NCBI GenBank assembly: GCA_032160165.1
Contig: JAVHWA010000089.1
Coordinates: 3,502-67,501, forward strand
Source: Acidobacteriota bacterium
GTDB lineage: Bacteria; Acidobacteriota; Blastocatellia; Pyrinomonadales; Pyrinomonadaceae
Length of the DNA: 64,000 nucleotides
Reading direction: 5' to 3'
The notes below the pieces were generated by a model. It worked only from the letters and a program-made list of their open reading frames with translations, made no database searches and was not told the DNA's origin. Within the stretch, counting starts at the first letter, position 1. Each line of letters opens with the position of its first letter. Both the position numbers and the translations under genes were made by a program. This document shows, piece by piece, positions 53,629 to 64,000 of the stretch.

Positions 53629-53705
<77 letters not shown>

Positions 53706-53719
53706 ATTAAATCAATGAG

Positions 53720-54793
53720 TTAAGGCAGGGAGGCGACCCTGCCTTTTTCATTTGTCACCGATTCGTCACTTGACGAAATCGGTTTTACTAAGTTCTCGAC
53801 TGCTCGACGCTTCGCCTCATCGGTGGCGTGGGTGTAACGCAGAGCCATTCGTACGTCTGACCAGCCGAAGATAGCCGCAAGCGTAAAAGCATCTGCTCCG
53901 CGGTCAGCCATGCGAGTGGCTGCCGTATGACGCAAGTCATGGAAGCGGAAATCCTTGATTCCTGCGTCGCTCTTCGCCAAGTCAAATCGACGCTTCACGT
54001 CGACCAACCGTCCTTCGGTCTTCGGACTAGGAAAGACGTACTCGCTGGTGTGCGGTAGCCCTTCCAACATTGCGCGGACCGTCTGGTTGATCGGAACGAA
54101 ACGATCTTTGCCGTTCTTGGAGACCCGAATGTGAATCACCCCTCGCGGCAAATCCACGTCGAACCAGGTGAGATTGAAAATCTCGCCTTGCCTCATTCCG
54201 GTGTTAATCGCCATAGTGACGATCCCCTGTACCCATTCCTGACCTCGAAGTTTCTCGAACAGCTTAGCTTCCTCTTCGAAAGTCAAATAACGCGTCCTTC
54301 CGTTGTTCGTGCGAAACTTCCGCACTCGCCGACAAGGATTGCTTTCGATCAGCTCGGCATCGAACGCCAGAGAGAAGATTTTCGATAGCACGCACATCTC
54401 GCGATTTACCGTCGCAGGATTTCGCTGGCGTTTGTACATCGTCTTTCCCTCACGACGCTTTTGCTTCCACTTCTCGATCGTCGGTGGAGTGATTTCGGAG
54501 AGCATCATCCTCCCGAACGTCTCGTTAAGCATGCCGCAAATCTTCACGTCATCTGGGTACGTTCGCTTGTGGAGTTTTGAGTAAGGCAGGAAATGATCCT
54601 TGACGAATTTGTCAAAGCGAACTTCCGGCCTCCTCTTAATCTGGTATCGGTTTTCAAAGACCTTGTTCTCGATCACGGTCGTGGCTTTGATGGCTTGTGG
54701 TCGCGTGTGCGCTTTTTTCAGAACCCGTTGCACCCGCCTGCCGTCGATCGTGATGTCACAGAACCATCTTCCTCTTCGCTTGTAAACTGACAT
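53720..54793 (-). CDS. Tyrosine-type site-specific integrase
   Basis: It has an N-terminal SAM-like domain. The catalytic residues lie in NTGMRQGE (Arg), FHDLRHTAATRM (HxxR) and GWSDVRMALRYTH (Tyr). Confidence 0.9.
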   Translation of the reverse strand: MSVYKRRGRWFCDITIDGRRVQRVLKKAHTRPQAIKATTVIENKVFENRYQIKRRPEVRFDKFVKDHFLPYSKLHKRTYPDDVKICGMLNETFGRMMLSEITPPTIEKWKQKRREGKTMYKRQRNPATVNREMCVLSKIFSLAFDAELIESNPCRRVRKFRTNNGRTRYLTFEEEAKLFEKLRGQEWVQGIVTMAINTGMRQGEIFNLTWFDVDLPRGVIHIRVSKNGKDRFVPINQTVRAMLEGLPHTSEYVFPSPKTEGRLVDVKRRFDLAKSDAGIKDFRFHDLRHTAATRMADRGADAFTLAAIFGWSDVRMALRYTHATDEAKRRAVENLVKPISSSDESVTNEKGRVASLP

Positions 54794-54872
54794 CGTGCTC
54801 CTTTCCGGTTGCAGCCATCACGGGAGCAGTCCGAGGATAGCAAAGCAACGCGTGATTTTCTATATCGCTTAC

Positions 54873-55061
54873 CTAACGAGACGGTTCGTTCCATGCGACT
54901 ACCGCGTCCAGTCGAAATCGGAGAAGCCCGCCCTTTCGCTCGTAAGGGATTCTTCTATCGCTTACCCAGGAGTAGATCGTGCGCGGCTTCACCTTAAGTA
55001 GTTCGGCCACCTCTTTCAGCGTCAAGTACATCGGGCGCTCTTTGGTTTCCTTCAAATTCAT
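54873..55061 (-). CDS. Excisionase-family / MerR-like HTH DNA-binding protein
   Basis: MYLTLKEVAELLKVKPRTIYSWVSDRRIPYERKGGLLRFRLDAV is a typical excisionase-family HTH. The start is uncertain (55061 or 55031). Confidence 0.65.
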   Translation of the reverse strand: MNLKETKERPMYLTLKEVAELLKVKPRTIYSWVSDRRIPYERKGGLLRFRLDAVVAWNEPSR

Positions 55062-55304
55062 GACTGCCTTTCCGAAAGGGGGCATTGAGATGCCGCAGAC
55101 CAACTCGGCACAATCCAGCTCGATGTCAATCCATGTGCCAAAACCAACCTAAGCGAAGTAGTCGTGCAATTCTTGTTGAAATCCGAGTGAGTAAAGGAGA
55201 GGAGTGGCGGAGACTGTCTGATCAAATCTCGGAAAATGGGCGGGGCTGCATGCAAAACCCAACACCGGCTCTGCAGACACTAAACAACACCGGTCGGGGT
55301 AAAT

Positions 55305-55916
55305 TCACGCATCGTCCTCGTCGGCGGGGTCGGTTGGGTGTCCGTTCTCGTAGGTTAGTCGCCCTTGGCGATCCTCGTCATCAGCGGCGGTGCCAGCCGA
55401 AGCGGGTTCCTTCCCAACAATCTTATCTCTGATTTCCTCGGCTAGTCCGTAGGAGTAGTCCTGAGCGTCCTCAGTTTGTAGTTCGAATAATCGGCCGATC
55501 TGCTCGCGGCTTCTTCCCTTTTCATGGAGGGCAGGGACGGAAAGATACTCCCACGATTCCACTCTTGCAGCGCGAGCTTCGACCAAGGCTTCCTGTATGA
55601 GTTCCAGGTTGGCACATTGAATGCGGTACGTAATCTCGTCTTGGCCGATCATCCTGAGCAGAGGTGTCTGAATTGTCTGGAGTGTTTCAGGGATTTCCTG
55701 AGTGGGGGGAGGCTGCTCGGTCTCCTCACGGTGTACGATTTTCCGGCGGCGAGCAGCAAGGGCTTCATCCAAGAGTTCACGCACCAACGGCGCGACTTCC
55801 TGGGCACCGGTCGCCTCCATTATTGCTTGAATCTGAGTCGCCTGATCAGCGAAGAGGTTCAAGGCCGTCACCTTTTTTATGATGACTCGAGTGCTCGTTC
55901 GCATTCGTTTTTGCAT
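55305..55916 (-). CDS. Hypothetical island protein with acidic C-terminus
   Basis: It is a long ORF with coding-like composition. I recognise no family. Confidence 0.4.
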   Translation of the reverse strand: MQKRMRTSTRVIIKKVTALNLFADQATQIQAIMEATGAQEVAPLVRELLDEALAARRRKIVHREETEQPPPTQEIPETLQTIQTPLLRMIGQDEITYRIQCANLELIQEALVEARAARVESWEYLSVPALHEKGRSREQIGRLFELQTEDAQDYSYGLAEEIRDKIVGKEPASAGTAADDEDRQGRLTYENGHPTDPADEDDA

Positions 55917-56514
55917 GTATGACGACTTCCCTTATTTGATTTATTTGATCTGCGCAGAAGGGGGGCATTCGGGGCGTTCAATAAATCTGCAAACAATTGA
56001 ATCGACGGCGCTTTTGCTACATCCTTATCTGCCAAAGTATTTTCATTAAATTTGATAAGGGACAAAGCTATTGCAAATAAATGACCTTACGTCGATGTCA
56101 GGCCCGTTTTGGAACGCTATCTTGTCTGCCCGCTTTATTGACCTACTTTATTGCTTTATCCACCACCTAAAGACGACAGATGGAGGCGTAACTTCCAGGG
56201 CTGCTGATCTCGCTGGGATCGGTGGCAAAAGTGCGCAACCAGAAAGCTGGGAAGGACCGCCGAGGCTAAACCCACAGACAAATCTTAGACCTACTCAGCG
56301 ATCGCCAGGGCAGTCTGGGGGTACATGAACAGAGACTTCTCATAGCCAGACCTCTCCCCGAAACTGGCCGCTTCCGATACATGCGGGCGCGCGCATACGC
56401 GCGGAACCTCGACCTCCCCGCACAGGGTTTTTTGTCTTCTTTTTCCTTAATCGGGTTCAACCACGCCGTCCGAAGTCAGACCCAGTCGTATAGTCACTGT
56501 GCGAGGTTAGCGTG

Positions 56515-56850
56515 TTAGCGTCTCCCCAGATGACCCAGAGGAATCGCCGGCGGAGGAGTTAGGTTTGCCCACCGTCGTCGCAGTCTCGCCGCAGCCTTAC
56601 TCCGTGCATGTATTACGCGGCGAAACCTGTCCTGATTCCATCGGACGCGTGTCTCTGTTAGTTCCCTGTTTAGCCGGATCAATAGCCGCATGGCCTCGGC
56701 CGTGAGTAGGCGGTCACAAGTCAAGACAATTGGCGGGGCCTCCGCTCTCAGGGCTGCGTAGGTTTCGGCGCAGAGGGGGCGACGACTCGGCTTCAAGTTA
56801 TCAGGAATGATCGGGACGAGTGCGGACGCAGATGTGCTCTTCTGTGACAT
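56515..56850 (-). CDS. Hypothetical island protein
   Basis: This is an ORF only. It is Arg-rich, and I recognise no family. Confidence 0.3.
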   Translation of the reverse strand: MSQKSTSASALVPIIPDNLKPSRRPLCAETYAALRAEAPPIVLTCDRLLTAEAMRLLIRLNRELTETRVRWNQDRFRRVIHARSKAAARLRRRWANLTPPPAIPLGHLGRR

Positions 56851-56935
56851 CTCGCTTTCTCCTTTATGTTGGACAAGCGACGAGGGGGCGGCGCGAGTGG
56901 TGTGAATACTCGTACCGCCGCGTTGACTGTCACGC

Positions 56936-57241
56936 TTAGTATTCGCTCGGAAGTAACAGCGTTGTGGCGCTGCGGTCCGCCTCGGTGATGATCCAAAGCT
57001 GTTGGCTCCCGATCCGATAGCTGCTCAGCAACCGATATCCCTTCTGGAGGGAAAGCTCGTTTTCGCGGATGTCGTCCTCGCTGAGCTCTCCCCAGTCGCA
57101 GGACATGTGACGGCGCAAAAACTCGATCGCAGTCTGTCCGGCGATTTGGAGCGCTTCTTCCGCGCCCGGCGTGATGAAGGTTTGGCCTAGCGCAAAGCGT
57201 CTGACGCCCAGCGCTTGAATCGTGGTAGAGTTCGCTTGCAT
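56936..57241 (-). CDS. Small conserved plasmid/ICE-associated protein (unknown function)
   Basis: I recall the C-terminal motif CDWGELSEDD...N...L..G.R.LS.Y......LWIITEADRS.TTLLLPSEY from conjugative elements next to ArdC genes. The ATG at 57241 is preceded by AAGGAG. Confidence 0.55.
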   Translation of the reverse strand: MQANSTTIQALGVRRFALGQTFITPGAEEALQIAGQTAIEFLRRHMSCDWGELSEDDIRENELSLQKGYRLLSSYRIGSQQLWIITEADRSATTLLLPSEY

Positions 57242-57324
57242 CGATTTTTTCTCCTTCATTGGTGAAATGTTTGGTGCCTGGGCTAGGCGAGCGTTCGCGC
57301 GCTTTCCTAGCCCCTTCTCGTTGT

Positions 57325-58167
57325 TCACTGTTCCTGCTCGGTGTGGCTTGATTGTTGTCGTCCGGCTCGCAGAATTTGATCAGCCGCGCGAAAGATCTTC
57401 TGAGCGCTCTTTTCAGGGATCGCATCTGCGTTGAAGACGCGTCCCTGGTATAGCCAGTTTTGAATGTAGCCTCGGCAGAAGTCCGAGCCTTCGAGTTCGA
57501 GTGCTTCACAACATAGCAACGCGACTGCTTCCGCTTCAATTTCGCGCAGGCTCTTAGGAGTTCTTTCCGTATCCGTAAAATCGCCTTCGGCTGTGTGACC
57601 TAAGACGACATGCGCGGCTTCGTGAAAAAGCGTCTTGTGCGGAAGTTGAGCTACTGGATTGATCGCGATCTGACACTTTCGCGCGTAGCCTTGACAGTTG
57701 CCGTTCGTCTCTGCGAATGGGATTTGTTCGATGGCGAGGGAGGCAAGTGCGCGGTCGGCGTTCCAGTCCGGTGTTTGCGGAGGCGTGAAGTCTTCGCCCG
57801 AGGTCTGGCAGATGACGAACCAGCGAGCCTTGTGCACAAATGACGTATAGACGCGTGCTCCGCTTGCTTCGTCGTTCGGCTCTGATTCAGCCTCTCGGCG
57901 CTTGCAGGTGAACGGCATACAGAGGATCAAAGCTCGCTCGCCACGTTTGACGATTCGGCCGAGCTCTTTCCATTTCGGAAACGTATTGATTGGGCCGGGC
58001 TGTAGTCCTCGCATCTGACACTGCACGAGCGCGAGCACTTGATTTCCGAGCGAGTAGTTGTGAAAGGCGGTGTAAGCTTTCATGATCAAACCGGGTTTGT
58101 TTACAGCTTCAACTAACAAGGCCGACCATTTGGGTATGTCCACTGATCGGGTTGCGTGTCTGTCCAT
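57325..58167 (-). CDS. ArdC-like anti-restriction protein (ssDNA-binding N-domain plus zincin metalloprotease)
   Basis: The N-terminal domain reads YSLGNQVLALVQC....GPINTFPKWKELGR.VKRGERAL. The C-terminal domain carries HEAAHVVLGH (HExxH). The ATG at 58167 is preceded by AAAGGAG. Confidence 0.8.
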   Translation of the reverse strand: MDRHATRSVDIPKWSALLVEAVNKPGLIMKAYTAFHNYSLGNQVLALVQCQMRGLQPGPINTFPKWKELGRIVKRGERALILCMPFTCKRREAESEPNDEASGARVYTSFVHKARWFVICQTSGEDFTPPQTPDWNADRALASLAIEQIPFAETNGNCQGYARKCQIAINPVAQLPHKTLFHEAAHVVLGHTAEGDFTDTERTPKSLREIEAEAVALLCCEALELEGSDFCRGYIQNWLYQGRVFNADAIPEKSAQKIFRAADQILRAGRQQSSHTEQEQ

Positions 58168-58474
58168 GGTTGGTGCTCCTTTCGCATCCATGTTTTGGTC
58201 TTTGGTCTTGAAAACAGGTTTCCCCCTCGTAGGGACGTTGGGACACGAGTGGGCGCCCGGACGCACACCCGAAGGGGCGAAACGAAGTGGAGCACTCGGA
58301 GGCTTTGCGGAGAGTTGTGCGGACGGGCTCTCGTGGCACAATCGGCCCGTAGAGGGGGAAACTAATTCAGATGTCTCGGCTGGAGTGGAGCGAAGCGGAA
58401 TGGAGGCCGAGGCCTAATTGAATTAGCGCTGTAGGGGAAGGAGATAGTAGGTCTAGGGTAGTATTAGTTGAGCC

Positions 58475-59167
58475 ATGAGATACATTGAAACATATGGAGA
58501 TCAACGACAGCTCGCGTTCTGTGCGTTCTGTGGAGGAGCCACAGGGACTCGTGACCATTGTCCATCACGGGTCCTTCTGGACAAGCCTTACCCGGAGAAC
58601 CTGCCTGTAGTACCTGCATGCCGTACCTGCAATGCCGGATTTTCATCTGATGAGGAGTATTTCGCACGTTTGGTTAGTTGTGTTCTAGCAGGCTCGACAG
58701 AACCAGACTCGATTCCTCGACAAAAAATTGCGCGCATCTTGCGGAAGAAGCCTGCGCTTCGCTCTCGGATAGAACAATCTAGAAGGGAGACTGCGTCCGA
58801 GATTAGCTTTACGCCTGAATCTCATCGGGTATTTTCTGTCGTGAGAAAGCTCGCACAAGGCCACGCGCTCCACGAACTCCACGAGCCGTGTGCCTATCCA
58901 CCGAGCGAGATATGTATTCAGCCCTTTGCCTTAATGAGTGAGGCCCAACGTGATGAATTTGAGAGTCCGAGCCCACTTGGACGCAGTATTTGGCCGGAGG
59001 TTGGCAGTCGCGCTTTGCAACGGCTCGTCACAGAGAAAAATGATCTCTATGACGGTTGGCTTGAGATTCAACGAAGAGGATACCGGTTTCAGGCTTCAGT
59101 ACCGAATGGAATCGAAATCCGCATTGTTATTCAAGAATACCTAGCGGTTCTGGTGCGATGGGAGTAA
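58475..59167 (+). CDS. HNH-like nuclease-domain protein
   Basis: CAFCGG...TRDHCPSRVLL......NLPVVPACRTCNAGFS is a Cys4 plus His-Me finger-like arrangement. The C-terminal 130 aa are unassigned. Confidence 0.55.
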   Translation: MRYIETYGDQRQLAFCAFCGGATGTRDHCPSRVLLDKPYPENLPVVPACRTCNAGFSSDEEYFARLVSCVLAGSTEPDSIPRQKIARILRKKPALRSRIEQSRRETASEISFTPESHRVFSVVRKLAQGHALHELHEPCAYPPSEICIQPFALMSEAQRDEFESPSPLGRSIWPEVGSRALQRLVTEKNDLYDGWLEIQRRGYRFQASVPNGIEIRIVIQEYLAVLVRWE

Positions 59168-59190
59168 TGCTCTCACCATGGCTTCTCACT

Positions 59191-59496
59191 TCAGAACTCA
59201 ATATTTGCCTTCGGGTGCTGAAATCCGAGTACAGACCGAATCTTCTCCGCGCATTCATTCTGATTCCTAACCGCCTCGATGTGACCTTTGTCCGTTCCAC
59301 CCTCTCCGCCACGCGCGTCTATATATGCACTCATACGCGCAGCAACAACAGCAAGTTGGATTAGACTATTGGATATCAATCTCAAGTCCTCTCCATGTAC
59401 GTCGGAGAATGTCTCTCTCCATTCCTCCGGCTTAATCTTGACAAGGTCCTCTGCGGCTGTTCGAAAGAGCTGTGCGATTTTGCTAGTGTCAGTCAT
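59191..59496 (-). CDS. Hypothetical small protein, co-oriented 56 nt downstream of the HTH-NTPase gene
   Basis: This is an ORF only, predicted helical, and probably in an operon with 59553-61730. Confidence 0.4.
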   Translation of the reverse strand: MTDTSKIAQLFRTAAEDLVKIKPEEWRETFSDVHGEDLRLISNSLIQLAVVAARMSAYIDARGGEGGTDKGHIEAVRNQNECAEKIRSVLGFQHPKANIEF

Positions 59497-59552
59497 TCCT
59501 TATATTCACAACCTCCAACTTCATCGAATCGAATCGATCTATTTGCCCACAT

Positions 59553-61730
59553 CTACTCTGAGGGAGCTTCGAGAATCTCTTGAAGCCCATGCACCAATTC
59601 TTCCCACGCCCTGTTGACCTCGGCGGTCAGTCTGCGGTAAAGATCACGAACGGCAGCATCGCTGAACCACGTCCGTGTCTCTTCCGCGACGACGTTTCGA
59701 TAAGGACCGCCGGTTCCGTATACCCTCTCGCATTTGTCCCAGTAAGTCGAAGCGCTGTGCAACCGATCTCGATAAATCGTCTCGCCGAAGACTTGTGCTT
59801 GCCGGGTCAGATTCTCAACCGCCGCGTCCACGTGCTCCGCAATTTGCCGAAGGAACTCTCGCGCGTTGGCATAATCAGGGTTTCCAGCGAGATTATCGAT
59901 GACAGCCTTAAGGTTCTTGACTCTTTCACCTGCTGTGTTAGCTACAATTTGTCGAGTTGCGTAGCCGAGTTGATAATAGTAGTCAAAGTTATCCCACGTA
60001 CCTTCTCGACGCACTGAAGCCCACAGTGTGCGTGCATGAATGGAGCGAATCTCATCTTCGAGCAATTGGTCTGGCCGTCTACTCTCCTCCAGCCGCGTGT
60101 TGTCGCGAGCCCAAACTCTCAAATGATCCATAACCTCGCTAAGCGCTAATGCCCGTTCTTCTCGCGTACGATGCTTAACGAGTTCATCTAATTTTTGCAC
60201 TGTGTCAGCTACACGGTGATTGTATTGCTGACGGACTGCAGAAAACTGGTTTACAACAAAGGTGCGAAAGCTCTCGACGTCGCGCTTCGAAGTAGCATTA
60301 AGGAATATAACGGGAAGCTGGTCCGCCCTCAGGGGTTGTAGCGCATGATGGATGTGTGCAAGCTTGACGTCGTACCCCGCTTCATCTGATTCCACAAAGT
60401 CATTAGTCGATTCGTCCTTCATATCAACCGCTTCTTCGTTGCGCGGAAGGACGAGCAATACCATTCGCTCGTCCAGGCTGGCATCAGCGTGCAATGACAT
60501 TGCTCTGCCAATCAGGCTGATAGTGGGAAGGTCCGGAGCCTCACCGAATTTTGTGCAAAGGAGCAGAATGGCGTGGGGGTCGTCGAAGTGACTATCAATA
60601 TCCGCGCGGGCGGACGCTTGGTCAACTCCCTTTGTGTCAACCACCCCAACATTGATGTACTGGCCATCGAAGAGCTTTCCCGGAACGACGACGTTAATGC
60701 GCTTAGGAAGCGAAAAGCCAGCGCGTCGACCATTGTTGATCTCTTTGAATGTCTTTTGCAGCCATTCAAGCTCCTTGACCTTTGGATCGCCATCCTCGCA
60801 CCATACAGTGGTGTCGCGACGCCGTAGCAAGTCCATCTTCGTCAGAATGTGAATCGCAAGCTCTTCGCGCACGGGAAACGATGTCGCAAGCAATTGCGCT
60901 TGAGCTTCGCTCAAACCCGAAAGACCTCGGATCGCGCGAGCCATCTCCTCTGAGACCCAAGGCACCTCTTCGGCTGCGCCCGCTTTGGACTTCTCCTTTG
61001 ATCGGACTTTCTTCGGCGGCTTCTCTGCGCCTGTGATCTTGGGCCTTGGAGGGTGTTTCGCCACGGCAAGCAGGTGATCGGCATAATCAAGGACATAGCG
61101 ACGAATTTCTTCGTCGGTACAAGGCTCCACGATTAGTCCGTATTGTGGACCAGCTTCAACCCGCACCTCGCAGAGGGTGGTGCGACCGCCGCCTACCTCT
61201 AAAACCATCCGACGCGCGAAGGGCAACTCTTCTTTGTCGAGCGTGAGACCCAACGAAGTGCAAATCGCGCTAGTCTTGCCAACACTTACTACGCCGATAA
61301 AGACGAGGTAATGGTCGATTCGCTTCAAAAAGTCTGAGCACCTCAACAGATCAGCTGCGTAGAGATCCAGAGCGCGCACAAATACTGCCTTCGTCTCAGG
61401 ATCGGCCTTTAACTCATCGATACGAGCGAGTTGCTGATCTATGGTTAGAAGGGATTCCCAATCGGGATGTGGAAATGTAGGCCGGCGAGTCGGATCAATC
61501 CATTTCGCTTTCAAGTACCGAAGACAATCCGAAGCTAGTTCAGTGTTTATTGACTTAAGGTAAGCCCTTATTTCATCATCTGTGGGCAAAACCTCTCCGC
61601 TTTCCATTCGGAAAACGCGGGTTGTATTACTTCCCATTGTCTTTGCCAAAGACGACTGGGTAATGCCCGCACGATCTCGCACGTGGCTTAAGATCCGGCC
61701 GATGTGTTCAAATTGCCCTGACAACCCCAT
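59553..61730 (-). CDS. XRE-type HTH fused to a dynamin-like/TRAFAC P-loop NTPase and a long helical C-terminal region
   Basis: The HTH reads AGITQSSLAKTMGSNTTRVFRMESGE. The G1/Walker A is FIGVVSVGKTS (about 61269-61300), the G3-like motif is VVDTKG (about 60629-60640) and the G4-like motif is LLLCTKFGE. A Lys-rich insert lies between G1 and G3. Confidence 0.7.
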   Translation of the reverse strand: MGLSGQFEHIGRILSHVRDRAGITQSSLAKTMGSNTTRVFRMESGEVLPTDDEIRAYLKSINTELASDCLRYLKAKWIDPTRRPTFPHPDWESLLTIDQQLARIDELKADPETKAVFVRALDLYAADLLRCSDFLKRIDHYLVFIGVVSVGKTSAICTSLGLTLDKEELPFARRMVLEVGGGRTTLCEVRVEAGPQYGLIVEPCTDEEIRRYVLDYADHLLAVAKHPPRPKITGAEKPPKKVRSKEKSKAGAAEEVPWVSEEMARAIRGLSGLSEAQAQLLATSFPVREELAIHILTKMDLLRRRDTTVWCEDGDPKVKELEWLQKTFKEINNGRRAGFSLPKRINVVVPGKLFDGQYINVGVVDTKGVDQASARADIDSHFDDPHAILLLCTKFGEAPDLPTISLIGRAMSLHADASLDERMVLLVLPRNEEAVDMKDESTNDFVESDEAGYDVKLAHIHHALQPLRADQLPVIFLNATSKRDVESFRTFVVNQFSAVRQQYNHRVADTVQKLDELVKHRTREERALALSEVMDHLRVWARDNTRLEESRRPDQLLEDEIRSIHARTLWASVRREGTWDNFDYYYQLGYATRQIVANTAGERVKNLKAVIDNLAGNPDYANAREFLRQIAEHVDAAVENLTRQAQVFGETIYRDRLHSASTYWDKCERVYGTGGPYRNVVAEETRTWFSDAAVRDLYRRLTAEVNRAWEELVHGLQEILEAPSE

Positions 61731-61939
61731 ACTAGCTCCTCGTGAACTGATTTCGCCACCATGTGCTTTATACGCGAAACGTATTCACCGTGTCAAGCCC
61801 CTCCCGCGAAATGCATTCGCCCCGCCGGCAGTTTGGGATTGAAGCTGAAAGCATTTGGCCGATTCTGCAAATAAAACTCTTTCAATCTTCCCTTTGTTAA
61901 GGCAAAATGCTATGTTTTAGGTTTTTCGTATCCTCCAAA

Positions 61940-63259
61940 ATGCCAGAACCGGAACGACGGCTGCGATTTATCGATCTGTTTGCGGGTCTCGGGGGCTTCC
62001 ATTTAGCTCTCAACGCGCTCGGACACGAGTGTGTCTTCGCTAGCGAGATCGATGACGAGTTGTGTGATCTCTATGAGAAGAATTTCGGATTGAGACCTAC
62101 TGGGAACCTAAGAACTATTCATGAGGACGACGTGCCTGAGCATGACGTTTTGTGTGCCGGCTTCCCCTGCCAACCATTTTCCAAGGCGGGTGAGCAGCTT
62201 GGAACCAAATGTCGCCTTTGGGGTGATTTGTTCTCGAAGCACGTTCTGAGATTGCTTCGTCGTCACACACCGACGTATCTAATAATGGAAAATGTCGCTA
62301 ACTTGGAGCGTCACAACGGAGGGCGAACGTGGAAAAAGATGCGCCGCCAACTCGAGGAGTGCGGCTACAACATCGACACTAGAATCTTATCGCCTCATTT
62401 CTTCGGAGTGCCACAGATTCGAGAGCGCCTTTTCATTGTTGGAAGTCGCGTCGGGCTCGGCCACTTTTCCTGGCCAGAGAAAGACAACGCGGTTCCCAAT
62501 GTAGACTCGGTCTTGGATGTTAATCCTCCAGACGCAAAAGCCCTTCCGACTCAAGTTGTTCGTTGCTTAGAAGTCTGGCAGGATTTTCTTAATCGGTCAC
62601 CAACGGGAGTGGAGTTGCCTTCTTTCCCGATCTGGACAATGGAGTTTGGTGCAACCTATCCATTCACGAAGTACGATTCGCTGCACAATATCTCCCTTTC
62701 AACGCTCCGCAATTACAAGGGCACCTTTGGGCAAAGTCTGCAACGCTATCATCGCAAAGATTTGCTGTCGAGAATACCGACCTATGCGCGGGCAGAAGAA
62801 AACGCGTTTCCGCGGTGGAAGCAGTTGTTTATTAAGCAGAATCGGGAGTTTTATCAGAGGAACAAAAGTTGGATTAAACCCTGGTTGCCGACAATCCGAT
62901 CCTTTCCATCGAGCCTTCAAAAATTTGAATGGAATTGTAAAGGTGAGGTCCGCGATCTTTGGAGGTATGTAATTCAATTCCGTGCTTCTGGTGTTCGCGT
63001 TAAGAGACCTACAACTGCCCCATCCTTAGTAGCGATGACGACCACGCAGATCCCTATAATTGCATGGGAGCGCCGCTACATGACTCCTTTGGAATGTAGC
63101 AGATTGCAAAGTATGGAGCGTCTTCCCCAACTTCCCCCGTCGGAAACCAGCGTGTGTAAGGCGTTAGGTAACGCCGTCAACGTCGAAGTCGTTAGGCGGT
63201 TAGCACACGAATTGTGCAGCGCGCCCACAATGGTTCCAGAGCAGGCCCGCGCTGCCTGA
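61940..63259 (+). CDS. dcm: DNA (cytosine-5)-methyltransferase
   Basis: Motif I is FIDLFAGLGGF, IV is GFPCQPFS, VI is MENVANL, VIII is QIRERLFIVG and X is GNAVNVEVV. I prefer the ATG at 61940 over the track start 61907. Confidence 0.9.
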   Translation: MPEPERRLRFIDLFAGLGGFHLALNALGHECVFASEIDDELCDLYEKNFGLRPTGNLRTIHEDDVPEHDVLCAGFPCQPFSKAGEQLGTKCRLWGDLFSKHVLRLLRRHTPTYLIMENVANLERHNGGRTWKKMRRQLEECGYNIDTRILSPHFFGVPQIRERLFIVGSRVGLGHFSWPEKDNAVPNVDSVLDVNPPDAKALPTQVVRCLEVWQDFLNRSPTGVELPSFPIWTMEFGATYPFTKYDSLHNISLSTLRNYKGTFGQSLQRYHRKDLLSRIPTYARAEENAFPRWKQLFIKQNREFYQRNKSWIKPWLPTIRSFPSSLQKFEWNCKGEVRDLWRYVIQFRASGVRVKRPTTAPSLVAMTTTQIPIIAWERRYMTPLECSRLQSMERLPQLPPSETSVCKALGNAVNVEVVRRLAHELCSAPTMVPEQARAA

Positions 63260-63293
63260 GGTCCCGACGGCCAGAAGTATCCTCATCGCACGA

Positions 63294-64000
63294 ATGGAAG
63301 ACTTCAAGTTGGCGAAACCACCCACAATCGATCGCGTAAGCATTCGACCTGGCGTCAGCATTCTTTCTGTTCTCTCACATCTCAACTATCGCCCATGGTT
63401 TGCTCTAGCTGAATTCGTCGATAACGCGATTCAAAGTCATTTGACCCATCACGCGGCTCTAGTTGCCGTTGATGGACCAACCAAACTCAAAGTCTCAATT
63501 GATATCGAGTCGACCGATGGCGGCCGAATAACTGTAAGGGACAACGCTGCCGGAATTTCGGCTGGCGATTTTCCAAGGGCGTTTCGTCCCGCGCAATTGC
63601 CACCTGATCGCTCTGGCCTTTGTGAATTCGGCATGGGAATGAAAAGCGCGGCGTGTTGGTTTGCGCCTCGCTGGTATGTTAGGTCGTCGGCGTTGGGCGA
63701 GCCGGTTGAAAGAACTGTCAAATTTAATATCGATGAGATTATTAGGGACTCACTTGATGAGTTGGACGTGCAATCGGAGCGTTGTTCTGCCGAATCGCAT
63801 TTCACAGAAATTGCCCTAATGGGACTTCACCAATTACCAATTGGAAGAACTCTGGGAAAGATCCGATCTCATCTGACGGAGATTTACCGGATCTTCATCC
63901 GAGAAGGGATGCTGGAACTACGGCTCAACGGCGAAGAGTTAAGCTACGAGCAGCCGGAAATACTTGTCGCACCCTCGTATCGGGATGAAGACGGGACACC
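63294..64000 (+). CDS. GHKL (HATPase_c_3 / MORC-like) ATPase, N-terminal part; ORF runs off the window and is absent from the ORF track
   Basis: My own translation from the ATG at 63294 has no stop through 64000. It begins MEDFKLAKPPTIDRVSIRPGVSILSVLSHLNYRPWFALAEFVDNAIQSH (N-box E..DN). It continues ...ITVRDNAAGIS (DxGxG-like) and ...GLCEFGMGMKSAACW (G2 box). Confidence 0.75.
   Translation, partial: MEDFKLAKPPTIDRVSIRPGVSILSVLSHLNYRPWFALAEFVDNAIQSHLTHHAALVAVDGPTKLKVSIDIESTDGGRITVRDNAAGISAGDFPRAFRPAQLPPDRSGLCEFGMGMKSAACWFAPRWYVRSSALGEPVERTVKFNIDEIIRDSLDELDVQSERCSAESHFTEIALMGLHQLPIGRTLGKIRSHLTEIYRIFIREGMLELRLNGEELSYEQPEILVAPSYRDEDGT

Follow-up and report, generated by a model that had tools for sequence, protein, structure and literature searches.

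A solitary helix-turn-helix protein with a predicted dynamin-like NTPase fold as candidate defence cargo of bacterial mobile elements

A stretch of 64,000 nt from an Acidobacteriota bacterium (contig JAVHWA010000089.1, positions 3,502-67,501 of the forward strand, assembly GCA_032160165.1), hereafter 'the window', to which plain coordinates refer, contains a gene for a protein of 725 amino acids (aa) that is designated here the HTH-NTPase. The protein is best explained as an N-terminal XRE-type helix-turn-helix (HTH) domain joined to an extended TRAFAC-type nucleoside triphosphatase (NTPase) domain and a helical stalk, together giving a predicted fold like that of the bacterial dynamins. The gene is best explained as a stand-alone cargo of an integrative mobile element inserted at a tRNA-Ala gene. 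With regard to function, the balance of probability tips, by a little, toward a stand-alone, autoregulated cargo gene that acts in defence or in conflict between elements. From its motifs and its model, the family would appear to be a previously undescribed form among the dynamin-superfamily NTPases of bacterial immunity, and its function is a candidate one.

Domain organisation and predicted fold

The gene and the domains and motifs of its product are as follows.

59553-61730, minus strand: HTH-NTPase gene, 725 aa (open reading frame, ORF)
61536-61703, minus strand: XRE-type HTH, residues 10-65 (Pfam HTH_3, HTH_31)
61323-61460, minus strand: long N-terminal helices before the G domain, residues 91-136 (secondary structure of the AlphaFold2 model)
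60291-61322, minus strand: extended NTPase (G) domain, residues 137-480 (invariant motifs; order of strands and helices in the model)
61272-61295, minus strand: P-loop GVVSVGKT
61176-61178, minus strand: candidate switch-I Thr185
60957-61055, minus strand: Lys/Pro-rich disordered insert, residues 226-258, specific to the subclade of the window
60627-60638, minus strand: DTKG (DxxG)
60429-60449, minus strand: LPRNEEA
59568-60287, minus strand: C-terminal helical, stalk-like region, residues 482-721 (secondary structure of the model)
59979-60008, minus strand: conserved aromatic/Gly loop RxGxWxNxDY
59700-59741, minus strand: conserved aromatic/Gly loop W664..G672xG674..Y677

The model was built with AlphaFold2 (AF2) on alignment A1, which comprises 30 diverse homologues, and has a mean predicted local distance difference test score (pLDDT) of 85.2 and a predicted TM-score (pTM) of 0.69. 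In a Foldseek comparison with the Protein Data Bank (PDB), all 37 matches with E ≤ 1e-3 belong to the dynamin superfamily, with a probability of 1.00. The best is C. jejuni DLP1/2 (5oxf/5owv, E = 3.6e-8), followed by SynDLP (9em9), IniA, BDLP, mitofusins, and dynamin, and the best structural matches range from E = 3.6e-8 to 1e-5. The alignments to proteins of the bacterial dynamin-like protein (BDLP) type span the full length. Among the predicted viral structures of BFVD, the giant-virus dynamins are the top matches. The global TM-scores of the dynamin matches are only 0.25-0.41, which is expected, because these are multi-domain proteins with flexible hinges. An earlier note on this DNA had proposed an HTH-fused, dynamin-like P-loop NTPase, and at the level of the fold this description is upheld.

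The motifs may be judged from their conservation in A1. The Walker A residues G146-x4-G151-K152 are invariant, with T or S at residue 153, and so are D365-T-K-G368 (DxxG, G3); the G1 and the 'VVDTKG' G3 of the earlier note are thus both sound. T185 is invariant within GGxTxCE and, from its position, would be the switch-I Thr of G2. P429, R430, E433, and A434 are invariant or nearly so, and in the C-terminal region, which is helical as had been claimed, W540, R575, G577, W579, Y584, W664, G672, and W709 are invariant. At the candidate positions for G4 stand LCSxFNNAP (391-399) and LPRxxEA (428-434). The sequence CTKFGE, formerly read as G4-like, is part of the conserved LCSxFNNAP motif and is not an NKxD motif. 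The Lys-rich insert that had been placed between G1 and G3 is present, but it is confined to the six closest homologues (62-93% identity) and is predicted to be disordered, with pLDDT below 50 for residues 229-255.

The HTH_3 match of the window protein is just above threshold in Pfam (23.3 bits against a cut-off of 23). The assignment of an XRE-type HTH is nevertheless secure, since all 30 homologues match, more strongly than the window protein does (best E = 2.5e-13). Searched against the PDB, the family profile finds structures of XRE-type proteins, C proteins, and HipB at E = 9e-7 to 1e-5. Beyond the HTH, no significant model was found in the 725-aa protein by Pfam, NCBIfam, or PADLOC, and NCBIfam matched the HTH only. 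The sub-threshold Pfam matches across the 30 members are for the most part to GTPase families of the TRAFAC type; they comprise MMR_HSR1 (14), RsgA (10), ABC_tran (9), and Dynamin_N (7).

Like the BDLPs (C. jejuni DLP1/2, N. punctiforme BDLP 2j68/2j69, M. smegmatis IniA 6j72, SynDLP, and the mitofusins), the 725-aa protein has helices on the N- and C-terminal sides of an extended G domain, together with G1, the candidate G2, and the DxxG of G3. By analogy with BDLP and mitofusin, the N-terminal helices (91-136) would pack with the C-terminal ones. It differs from the BDLPs in its low identity to them (about 10-13%), in having no NKxD, paddle, or membrane anchor, and in possessing a DNA-binding domain. 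Of the features of the dynamin superfamily, therefore, G1, G2 (by position), G3, and the overall fold of the predicted model are found, while G4, a sequence-profile match, and a membrane element are not. It might be supposed that the protein is a conventional membrane-remodelling dynamin, like DynA, IniA, or BDLP, that carries an HTH, as its best structural matches are membrane-active BDLPs. This is very improbable, because it has neither paddle nor transmembrane segment, Dynamin_N is not significant, the gene is accessory and mobile rather than core, and the protein has no companion, unlike the many BDLPs that function in pairs or are fused in tandem.

Two further observations concern the protein itself. 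C157, C187, and C392 are invariant in the 30 homologues and lie, respectively, after the start of the P-loop helix, in the TxCE by the candidate switch I, and in LCSxF; their positions suggest that they cluster close to the nucleotide, for metal binding, redox chemistry, or structure. A weak phmmer match (E = 0.008) was obtained to PDB 9vzy_A, a 393-aa 'HTH cro/C1-type domain-containing protein', which covers the HTH as well as a portion of the C-terminal helices (residues 625-708). The match may be due to chance, or 9vzy_A may be a distant relative of the stalk region whose structure has been solved.

Exchange of the N-terminal module

Variation at the N-terminus was surveyed by a search of 1.84 billion representatives with the HTH removed from the query, followed by Pfam scans of the atypical members among the 150 representatives listed. 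An N-terminal extension of about 85 residues is kept by most relatives, and a subgroup of about 610-650 aa is without it. The atypical members are as follows.

P0331: N-terminal TIR_2 in the position of the HTH (E = 4e-19)
P0361: N-terminal TIR_2 in the position of the HTH (E = 3e-18)
P0305, 921 aa: N-terminal SAVED in the position of the HTH (29.3 bits against a cut-off of 26.2)
P0232: extra C-terminal Sigma70_r4
P0334: C-terminal zinc finger (zf-Di19)
P0293, 824 aa: different N-terminal region of about 190 residues, with no Pfam hit; degenerate motifs

TIR and SAVED are hallmark bacterial immune modules. That they stand where other members have the HTH is an argument for regarding the NTPase-stalk core as an immune-type switch whose N-terminal module can be exchanged. 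Both kinds of variant retain the P-loop, TxCE, DT[KR]G, LCSxFxDAP, and the C-terminal aromatic/Gly loops, except that TxPE takes the place of TxCE in the SAVED variant P0305. In P0293 the P-loop is replaced by GEHAIRKS and DTKG by DTRP, and this protein is probably an inactivated, sensor-only, or scaffold-only derivative.

P0305 is encoded by the third gene of an overlapping operon (L102:161-4841), after genes for an AAA_21/DUF2813 (OLD/ABC-type) ATPase and a 218-aa protein. The same type of SAVED variant occurs at L103 and L104, and no CD-NTase is visible on the short contigs L102, L103, and L104. The operon of ATPase, 218-aa protein, and SAVED-NTPase is a candidate three-gene system. Kaur et al. 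(2020, PMC7159879) note that the effector position in conflict systems can itself be taken by an HTH domain.

Family size and distribution

More than 326 full-length homologues of about 715 aa were found in a search of 5.8 billion proteins, and these, where named at all, are called only 'XRE family' or 'helix-turn-helix' transcriptional regulators. With the HTH removed from the query, the 1.84 billion representatives yielded 783 relatives at the 50%-identity level with E ≤ 1e-3, 193 of them with E ≤ 1e-30. In 185,579 species-representative genomes there are 258 matches, distributed patchily over the Pseudomonadota, Planctomycetota, Acidobacteriota, Actinomycetota, and Verrucomicrobiota. Its carriers are tRNA-linked islands, conjugative elements, and plasmids, the last with matches in 19 of 72,556 records. 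Proteobacterial copies include one on an IncU plasmid of Citrobacter (WP_211136444.1) and one in C. necator (CP017757.2). Carriage by phages was considered and rejected: the family is nearly absent from them, with no match in the 50,697 phage records of INPHARED and two in the 2.9 million contigs of IMG/VR.

A predicted operator array

In the 176-bp region between the HTH-NTPase gene and the divergently transcribed dcm gene lie three candidate operators, spaced exactly 32 bp apart. They are the only matches to their pattern in the window, where 0.57 would be expected, and a search of the window that allowed mismatches gave no excess elsewhere. They surround a near-consensus sigma-70 promoter.

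61742-61756: candidate dyad operator 1, 15 nt, G[CT]GAA-N5-TTC[GA]C
61774-61788: candidate dyad operator 2, 15 nt, G[CT]GAA-N5-TTC[GA]C
61806-61820: candidate dyad operator 3, 15 nt, G[CT]GAA-N5-TTC[GA]C
61767-61796, minus strand: near-consensus sigma-70 promoter of the HTH-NTPase gene
61791-61796, minus strand: -35 element TTGACA
61767-61772, minus strand: -10 element TATAAA, separated from the -35 by an 18-nt spacer
61736-61740, minus strand: ribosome-binding site (RBS) AGGAG

The promoter was read directly from the sequence; the automatic scan requires T at position 6 of the -10 element, which excludes TATAAA. The middle dyad occupies the spacer; of the other two, one precedes the -35 and the other separates the -10 from the RBS. 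Because three phased palindromic operators overlap the promoter of the gene itself, autorepression by the HTH through these predicted sites is suggested. A secondary effect of the HTH on dcm is possible. A regulon beyond the gene's own promoter was considered and rejected, as there are no extra operator sites in the window.

Close homologues have equivalent GAA-N5-TTC dyads around TTGACA-type promoters. Over 83 homologue loci, in the 160 nt around the start (-150..+10), GAA-N4-TTC is enriched 8.9-fold (36 loci) and GAA-N5-TTC 3.9-fold, while the controls of spacing and composition range from 0.2- to 2.0-fold. GTT-N5-AAC, which had been meant as a control, is itself enriched 8.8-fold (19 loci) and probably reflects the GAAAC half-site again, arranged in the opposite (tail-to-tail) sense. 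These patterns suggest that the operator architecture varies between clades.

In its HTH, and in having dyads that overlap its own promoter beside a methyltransferase gene, the protein resembles the XRE autorepressors and C proteins (C.BclI 2b5a, HipB). Both an HTH_3/HTH_31 domain and dyad-symmetric candidate operators at the gene's own promoter are thus found, as in the XRE family. However, those proteins are of 70-100 aa, whereas here the HTH makes up less than 10% of a 725-aa NTPase.

The island and the backbone of the mobile element

The other features of the island are as follows.

53629-58341: island integration end and backbone, from tRNA-Ala to the ArdC-like gene
53629-53705: tRNA-Ala (ARAGORN)
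53720-54793: integrase (Pfam)
54873-55103: Xis-like HTH_17 gene (Pfam)
56936-57328: 130-aa ORF
57325-58341, minus strand: ArdC-like gene (Pfam)
58475-59167, plus strand: 230-aa Cys-rich ORF (CxxC...CxxC)
59191-59496, minus strand: gene for a 101-aa helical protein (ORF)
61907-63259, plus strand: dcm, 450 aa (Pfam DNA_methylase, E = 1e-64)
63294 to the window end at 64000, by which it is cut, plus strand: GHKL/HATPase_c_3 gene, MORC-like (HATPase_c_3, E = 3e-14)

The integrase, the Xis-like gene, and ArdC by the tRNA-Ala, together with the Pfam matches of the divergent Dcm/GHKL pair, bear out the mobile-island context that the earlier note had described. No attachment (att) repeat of the tRNA end occurs within 54001-64000, and the far end of the island therefore lies outside the window.

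The 101-aa gene lies on the same strand as the HTH-NTPase gene, with a gap of 56 nt and no predicted terminator between the two, and had been proposed as its small downstream partner. Both ORFs are real: the ratio pN/pS of the 101-aa ORF is 0.21-0.28 against three homologues, which indicates a genuine gene. The partnership, however, does not hold. Of 94 other loci searched by tblastn, a single one (L011, where the NTPase is 74% and the small protein 67% identical to those of the window) has a homologue of the 101-aa gene downstream of the NTPase. It is absent there from L006 (73% identity of the NTPase), L008 (71%), L009 (62%), and all the distant homologues. The small-protein family is larger than the NTPase subclade of the window, with 103 clusters of 62-83% identity, including sources in the Blastocatellia and Pyrinomonadaceae. 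On two acidobacterial contigs, L096 and L097, the 101-aa gene occurs without any NTPase, beside the same ArdC backbone and with different cargo. From this independent occurrence, the 101-aa gene is taken to be a gene of the mobile-element backbone that flanks variable cargo and is functionally unrelated to the NTPase. The idea that the two genes form a cassette, the small protein being a toxin, an antitoxin, or an adaptor, was accordingly rejected and retains very little probability, the same strand, the short gap, and the recurrence in L011 being outweighed by the 93 loci without the pair and by the contexts without the NTPase. A plausible-looking operon call is thereby corrected, in which adjacency on one island had been taken for partnership. 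The AF2 model of the 101-aa protein is a helical hairpin, and neither a family match (Pfam, PADLOC, NCBIfam) nor a fold match (best E = 4) was found for it.

The backbone is common to window 56936-59496, L096:8001-16306, and L097:1-16306. The identities to the window are 66-67% for ArdC (L096, L097; 67% in L097), 79% for the 130-aa ORF (L097), and 71-73% for the 101-aa ORF. Next to this backbone L096 carries duplicated Methyltransf_35/HATPase_c_3 modules, Dcm, and HhH-GPD; L097 carries a Piwi (prokaryotic Argonaute, pAgo) and CHAT pair and DUF6602; and the window carries the HTH-NTPase and Dcm/GHKL. The shared backbone looks like a hotspot for defence cargo in a family of elements with relaxase and type IV secretion system (T4SS) coupling-protein genes.

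It may also be asked whether the HTH-NTPase serves the element itself, in establishment, maintenance, partition, or anti-defence, from a region that enters the recipient first. Its relatives do lie near genes of such functions: ArdC in the window, Rad52/PDDEXK/DUF932 in L009, T4SS in L004 and L099, TrfA in L092, TrwC in L094, and ParA/RepA in L098. This explanation is nevertheless improbable, because the gene hops like a cargo among unrelated backbones (F- and P-type T4SS, IncU, tRNA islands, and small Rep/Par plasmids), because L096 and L097 share the backbone of the window without the HTH-NTPase, and because the TIR and SAVED fusions point to immunity.

Some neighbouring features are recorded here in their own right. 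The ArdC-like protein consists of an N-terminal single-stranded-DNA-binding domain of ArdC and a weak Peptidase_M78/IrrE-like region, and its gene overlaps the 130-aa ORF by 4 nt. Homologues of the 130-aa ORF, 43-46% identical, occur in two planctomycete loci with the NTPase family (L017, L026). Dcm and GHKL form a methyltransferase-plus-GHKL pair of the kind found in MORC-like systems associated with restriction-modification (RM), and further palindromes are found at 61850-61860 and 61901-61911, just upstream of dcm. The 230-aa ORF had been called HNH-like, a label that lacks support from Pfam: it has no Pfam or NCBIfam match, and its matches to PADLOC PDC-M01B are at chance level only. A 66% identical homologue in L096 (10724-11413) lies between two Methyltransf_35/HATPase_c_3 pairs, and the 230-aa ORF may for that reason belong with the Dcm/GHKL-type module rather than with the HTH-NTPase.

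Gene neighbourhoods of the family

To describe the neighbours, the 833 ORFs within six genes on either side in about 90 loci were clustered all against all. No cluster is common to more than seven loci, and the top one includes a type I HsdM (N6_Mtase) gene. Downstream genes are heterogeneous (a DUF6094 methyltransferase, TnpB, MmeI, a TraG-like protein, and several unknowns), as are the ten tightest co-directional +1 genes, and the small downstream ORFs are mutually unrelated. A DUF262/GmrSD neighbour occurs in only three loci. On these four comparisons any other conserved partner was rejected. The contexts of individual loci are illustrated by the following.

L001 (C. necator): type III-like methyltransferase (MTase)/ResIII RM; Bil/Bub-type ubiquitin-like system
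L004: F-type T4SS; type I RM; McrB
L008: NB-ARC; GmrSD_N; HEPN
L009: Rad52/PDDEXK/DUF932 upstream; complete BREX operon directly downstream
L092 (Burkholderia stabilis): integrase, TrfA, type I RM island
L094: TrwC
L098 (19.9-kb Sphingopyxis plasmid): Rep/Par, then HTH-NTPase, DUF262, RelE/HigA, Eco57I-type MTase and helicase, AAA and S8 peptidase

From the list, and from the annotated neighbourhoods in many genomes, it can be seen that the mobile, defence-rich context claimed for the window recurs in the family. Clear RM, BREX, or type IV restriction modules lie within 10 kb in seven of the 13 annotated neighbourhoods, and toxin-antitoxin or HNH/MTase pairs only in a further two. When the neighbours at ±2 are pooled, N6_Mtase, MmeI, GmrSD, Eco57I, Abi_2, KAP, HipA, CbtA, and DrmD recur.

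The same contexts bear on the possibility that the protein is an NTP-switched transcription factor, a dynamin-fold analogue of the MalT/AfsR regulators or an oversized counterpart of the C proteins, that senses a signal by way of its NTPase and stalk and controls the neighbouring cargo (Dcm/GHKL) or functions of the element. The closest matches to its HTH are C.BclI, HipB, and XRE repressors of that kind; the region that holds the operator array is shared with dcm; and RM, BREX, or MmeI operons often follow the gene immediately and in the same direction. Moreover, one variant has the extra Sigma70_r4 DNA-binding domain, and the STAND proteins offer a precedent for one NTPase core in both regulators and immune proteins. 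Against these points, the neighbours are wholly unconserved, and the downstream gene, co-directional in 49 of 78 loci, is on the opposite strand in the other 29. Furthermore, the rest of the island and of the window has no operator-like sites; those at the gene itself centre on its own -35, -10, and RBS, in keeping with autorepression; and a relative that is fused to TIR or lacks the HTH cannot act as a transcription factor. Such a role is therefore considered unlikely, though not far-fetched.

A distant, HTH-less relative of 664 aa, 23% identical over the G domain, was observed on the Pseudanabaena galeata plasmid pPg_01 (L100:7836-10547). Its stop codon abuts the start of a gene for an 'HsdR N-terminal domain' (PD-(D/E)xK-like) protein, with a UvrD-helicase, an Rpn nuclease, and MazF nearby, and it may represent an NTPase-plus-nuclease version of the theme.

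Comparison with known systems

Membership of a known defence family was rejected, as PADLOC gave no significant match and NCBIfam matched only the HTH. PADLOC v2 presumably includes models for Eleos. In a full-text search of the literature, no description of an XRE-fused dynamin-like family was found, and the earlier statement that the architecture matches no described system is consistent with both results.

Eleos, also termed 'Dynamins', is an anti-phage system of two consecutive dynamin-like genes, LeoA and LeoBC, in which mutations of the P-loop abolish defence and for which a parallel to Mx has been drawn (Millman et al. 2022, bioRxiv 10.1101/2022.05.11.491447). Like the 725-aa protein, it involves a dynamin-superfamily NTPase encoded in defence islands. 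It has, however, two dynamin-like genes and no HTH, whereas the 725-aa protein is solitary, HTH-fused, and without a significant PADLOC match. No second NTPase gene and no conserved neighbour were found in about 80 loci, so that the architecture is not that of Eleos.

STAND NTPases have swappable N-terminal modules and comprise both immune sensors of the Avs type and HTH regulators of the MalT/AfsR type. The present family follows the same logic, with an NTP switch at the centre, helices towards the C-terminus, and an N-terminal module that can be interchanged (HTH, TIR, SAVED, or none). The 725-aa protein differs from them in its DxxG, its candidate switch-I Thr, and its dynamin-like rather than ASCE/STAND fold. 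The fold matches are to dynamins and G-alpha, and the only traces of STAND are stray sub-threshold nSTAND matches at the P-loop (E ~2e-3) in two variants.

In the DO-GTPase/GAP1 conflict systems described by Kaur et al. (2020, PMC7159879), the GTPases are paired and bear zinc ribbons at the N-terminus, and a GAP1 gene is conserved downstream. In a comparison by description only, the 725-aa family showed no zinc ribbon, paralogous pair, or conserved downstream gene. Type II toxin-antitoxin or Abi systems with an HTH antitoxin have a co-inherited small partner, which the single case among 94 loci does not provide. The eukaryotic Mx and GBP proteins are likewise dynamin-superfamily NTPases in an immune context, by analogy only: MxA is a weak Foldseek match (rank 43, E = 3e-3), and no specific relationship to Mx or GBP is shown.

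Proposed function

A defence or conflict function may be pictured as follows. The HTH would bind the three phased dyads that straddle the -35, the spacer, and the -10/RBS of its own promoter and so keep expression low, and this binding may also affect the divergent dcm/GHKL promoter. The NTPase-stalk core would serve a system of immunity, or of conflict between elements, as a switch whose assembly is driven by nucleotide. Upon a trigger from an invading phage or plasmid, the core would oligomerise and deploy the N-terminal module. In the TIR variants the output would be depletion of NAD+. The HTH form would bind DNA with high avidity or reprogram transcription; alternatively, the dynamin-like module itself may act mechanically.

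In animals, the dynamin-superfamily GTPases Mx and GBP are front-line antiviral effectors. In bacteria, to our knowledge, only the two-gene Eleos and the housekeeping DynA have been linked to phage resistance, and the mechanism is unclear for both. A bolder form of the proposal is that the NTPase-stalk core constitutes an unrecognised class of dynamin-fold immune switches, a counterpart of STAND/Avs, and that the HTH form is a DNA-directed, Mx-like machine that idles on its own operators and, on infection, polymerises on DNA and so silences or traps the incoming phage or plasmid. We put this forward only tentatively and hold it to be rather unlikely.

A number of points weigh against the dynamin-like assignment and the defensive role. 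With regard to the former, no canonical G4 motif for guanine specificity (NKxD/TKxD) is conserved anywhere in the protein. No paddle and no transmembrane or hydrophobic segment is present besides the beta1/P-loop core (maximum KD19 1.68, residue 142). Pfam gives no Dynamin_N match in the window protein, and the seven sub-threshold matches among 30 members reach only E = 0.017. Sequence-level membership of the dynamins was in fact rejected: in searches of PDB sequences the phmmer matches were marginal and the family profile (hmmsearch) found HTH proteins only, and the alignment of A1 with E. coli RdcA/YjdA by hhalign covered the P-loop only, with a probability of 8%. The term 'dynamin-like' is thus supported by the model at the level of the fold only, and full membership of the family is not established.

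With regard to the latter, no killing or effector domain is recognisable in the HTH form, and the matches in PADLOC were limited to HTH_VI (E = 7e-4) and to PtuB at the level of chance. Among the 150 representatives listed, variants with TIR or SAVED make up a small minority, and the match to SAVED is marginal. By analogy with the MalT-type STAND proteins, HTH-plus-NTPase proteins can be ordinary signal-sensing regulators. The defence association of the neighbourhoods consists of counts without a matched genomic background, not a formal enrichment, and is suggestive; some of the neighbours are housekeeping genes at island edges. Finally, the operator binding, trigger, oligomerisation, and output are steps that we infer, and a role in defence or abortive infection is itself a proposal.

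Significance

The family couples a dynamin-like motor to a DNA-binding domain in a single gene that is widespread and has been annotated only as an 'XRE regulator'. The predicted operator array provides an immediate experimental handle on it. If the family is defensive, it would offer a compact model for the sensing of infection by a dynamin-type assembly switch and for the effect of such a switch on DNA, and the principle of an 'NTPase with swappable effector' would extend from the STAND proteins to the dynamin fold.

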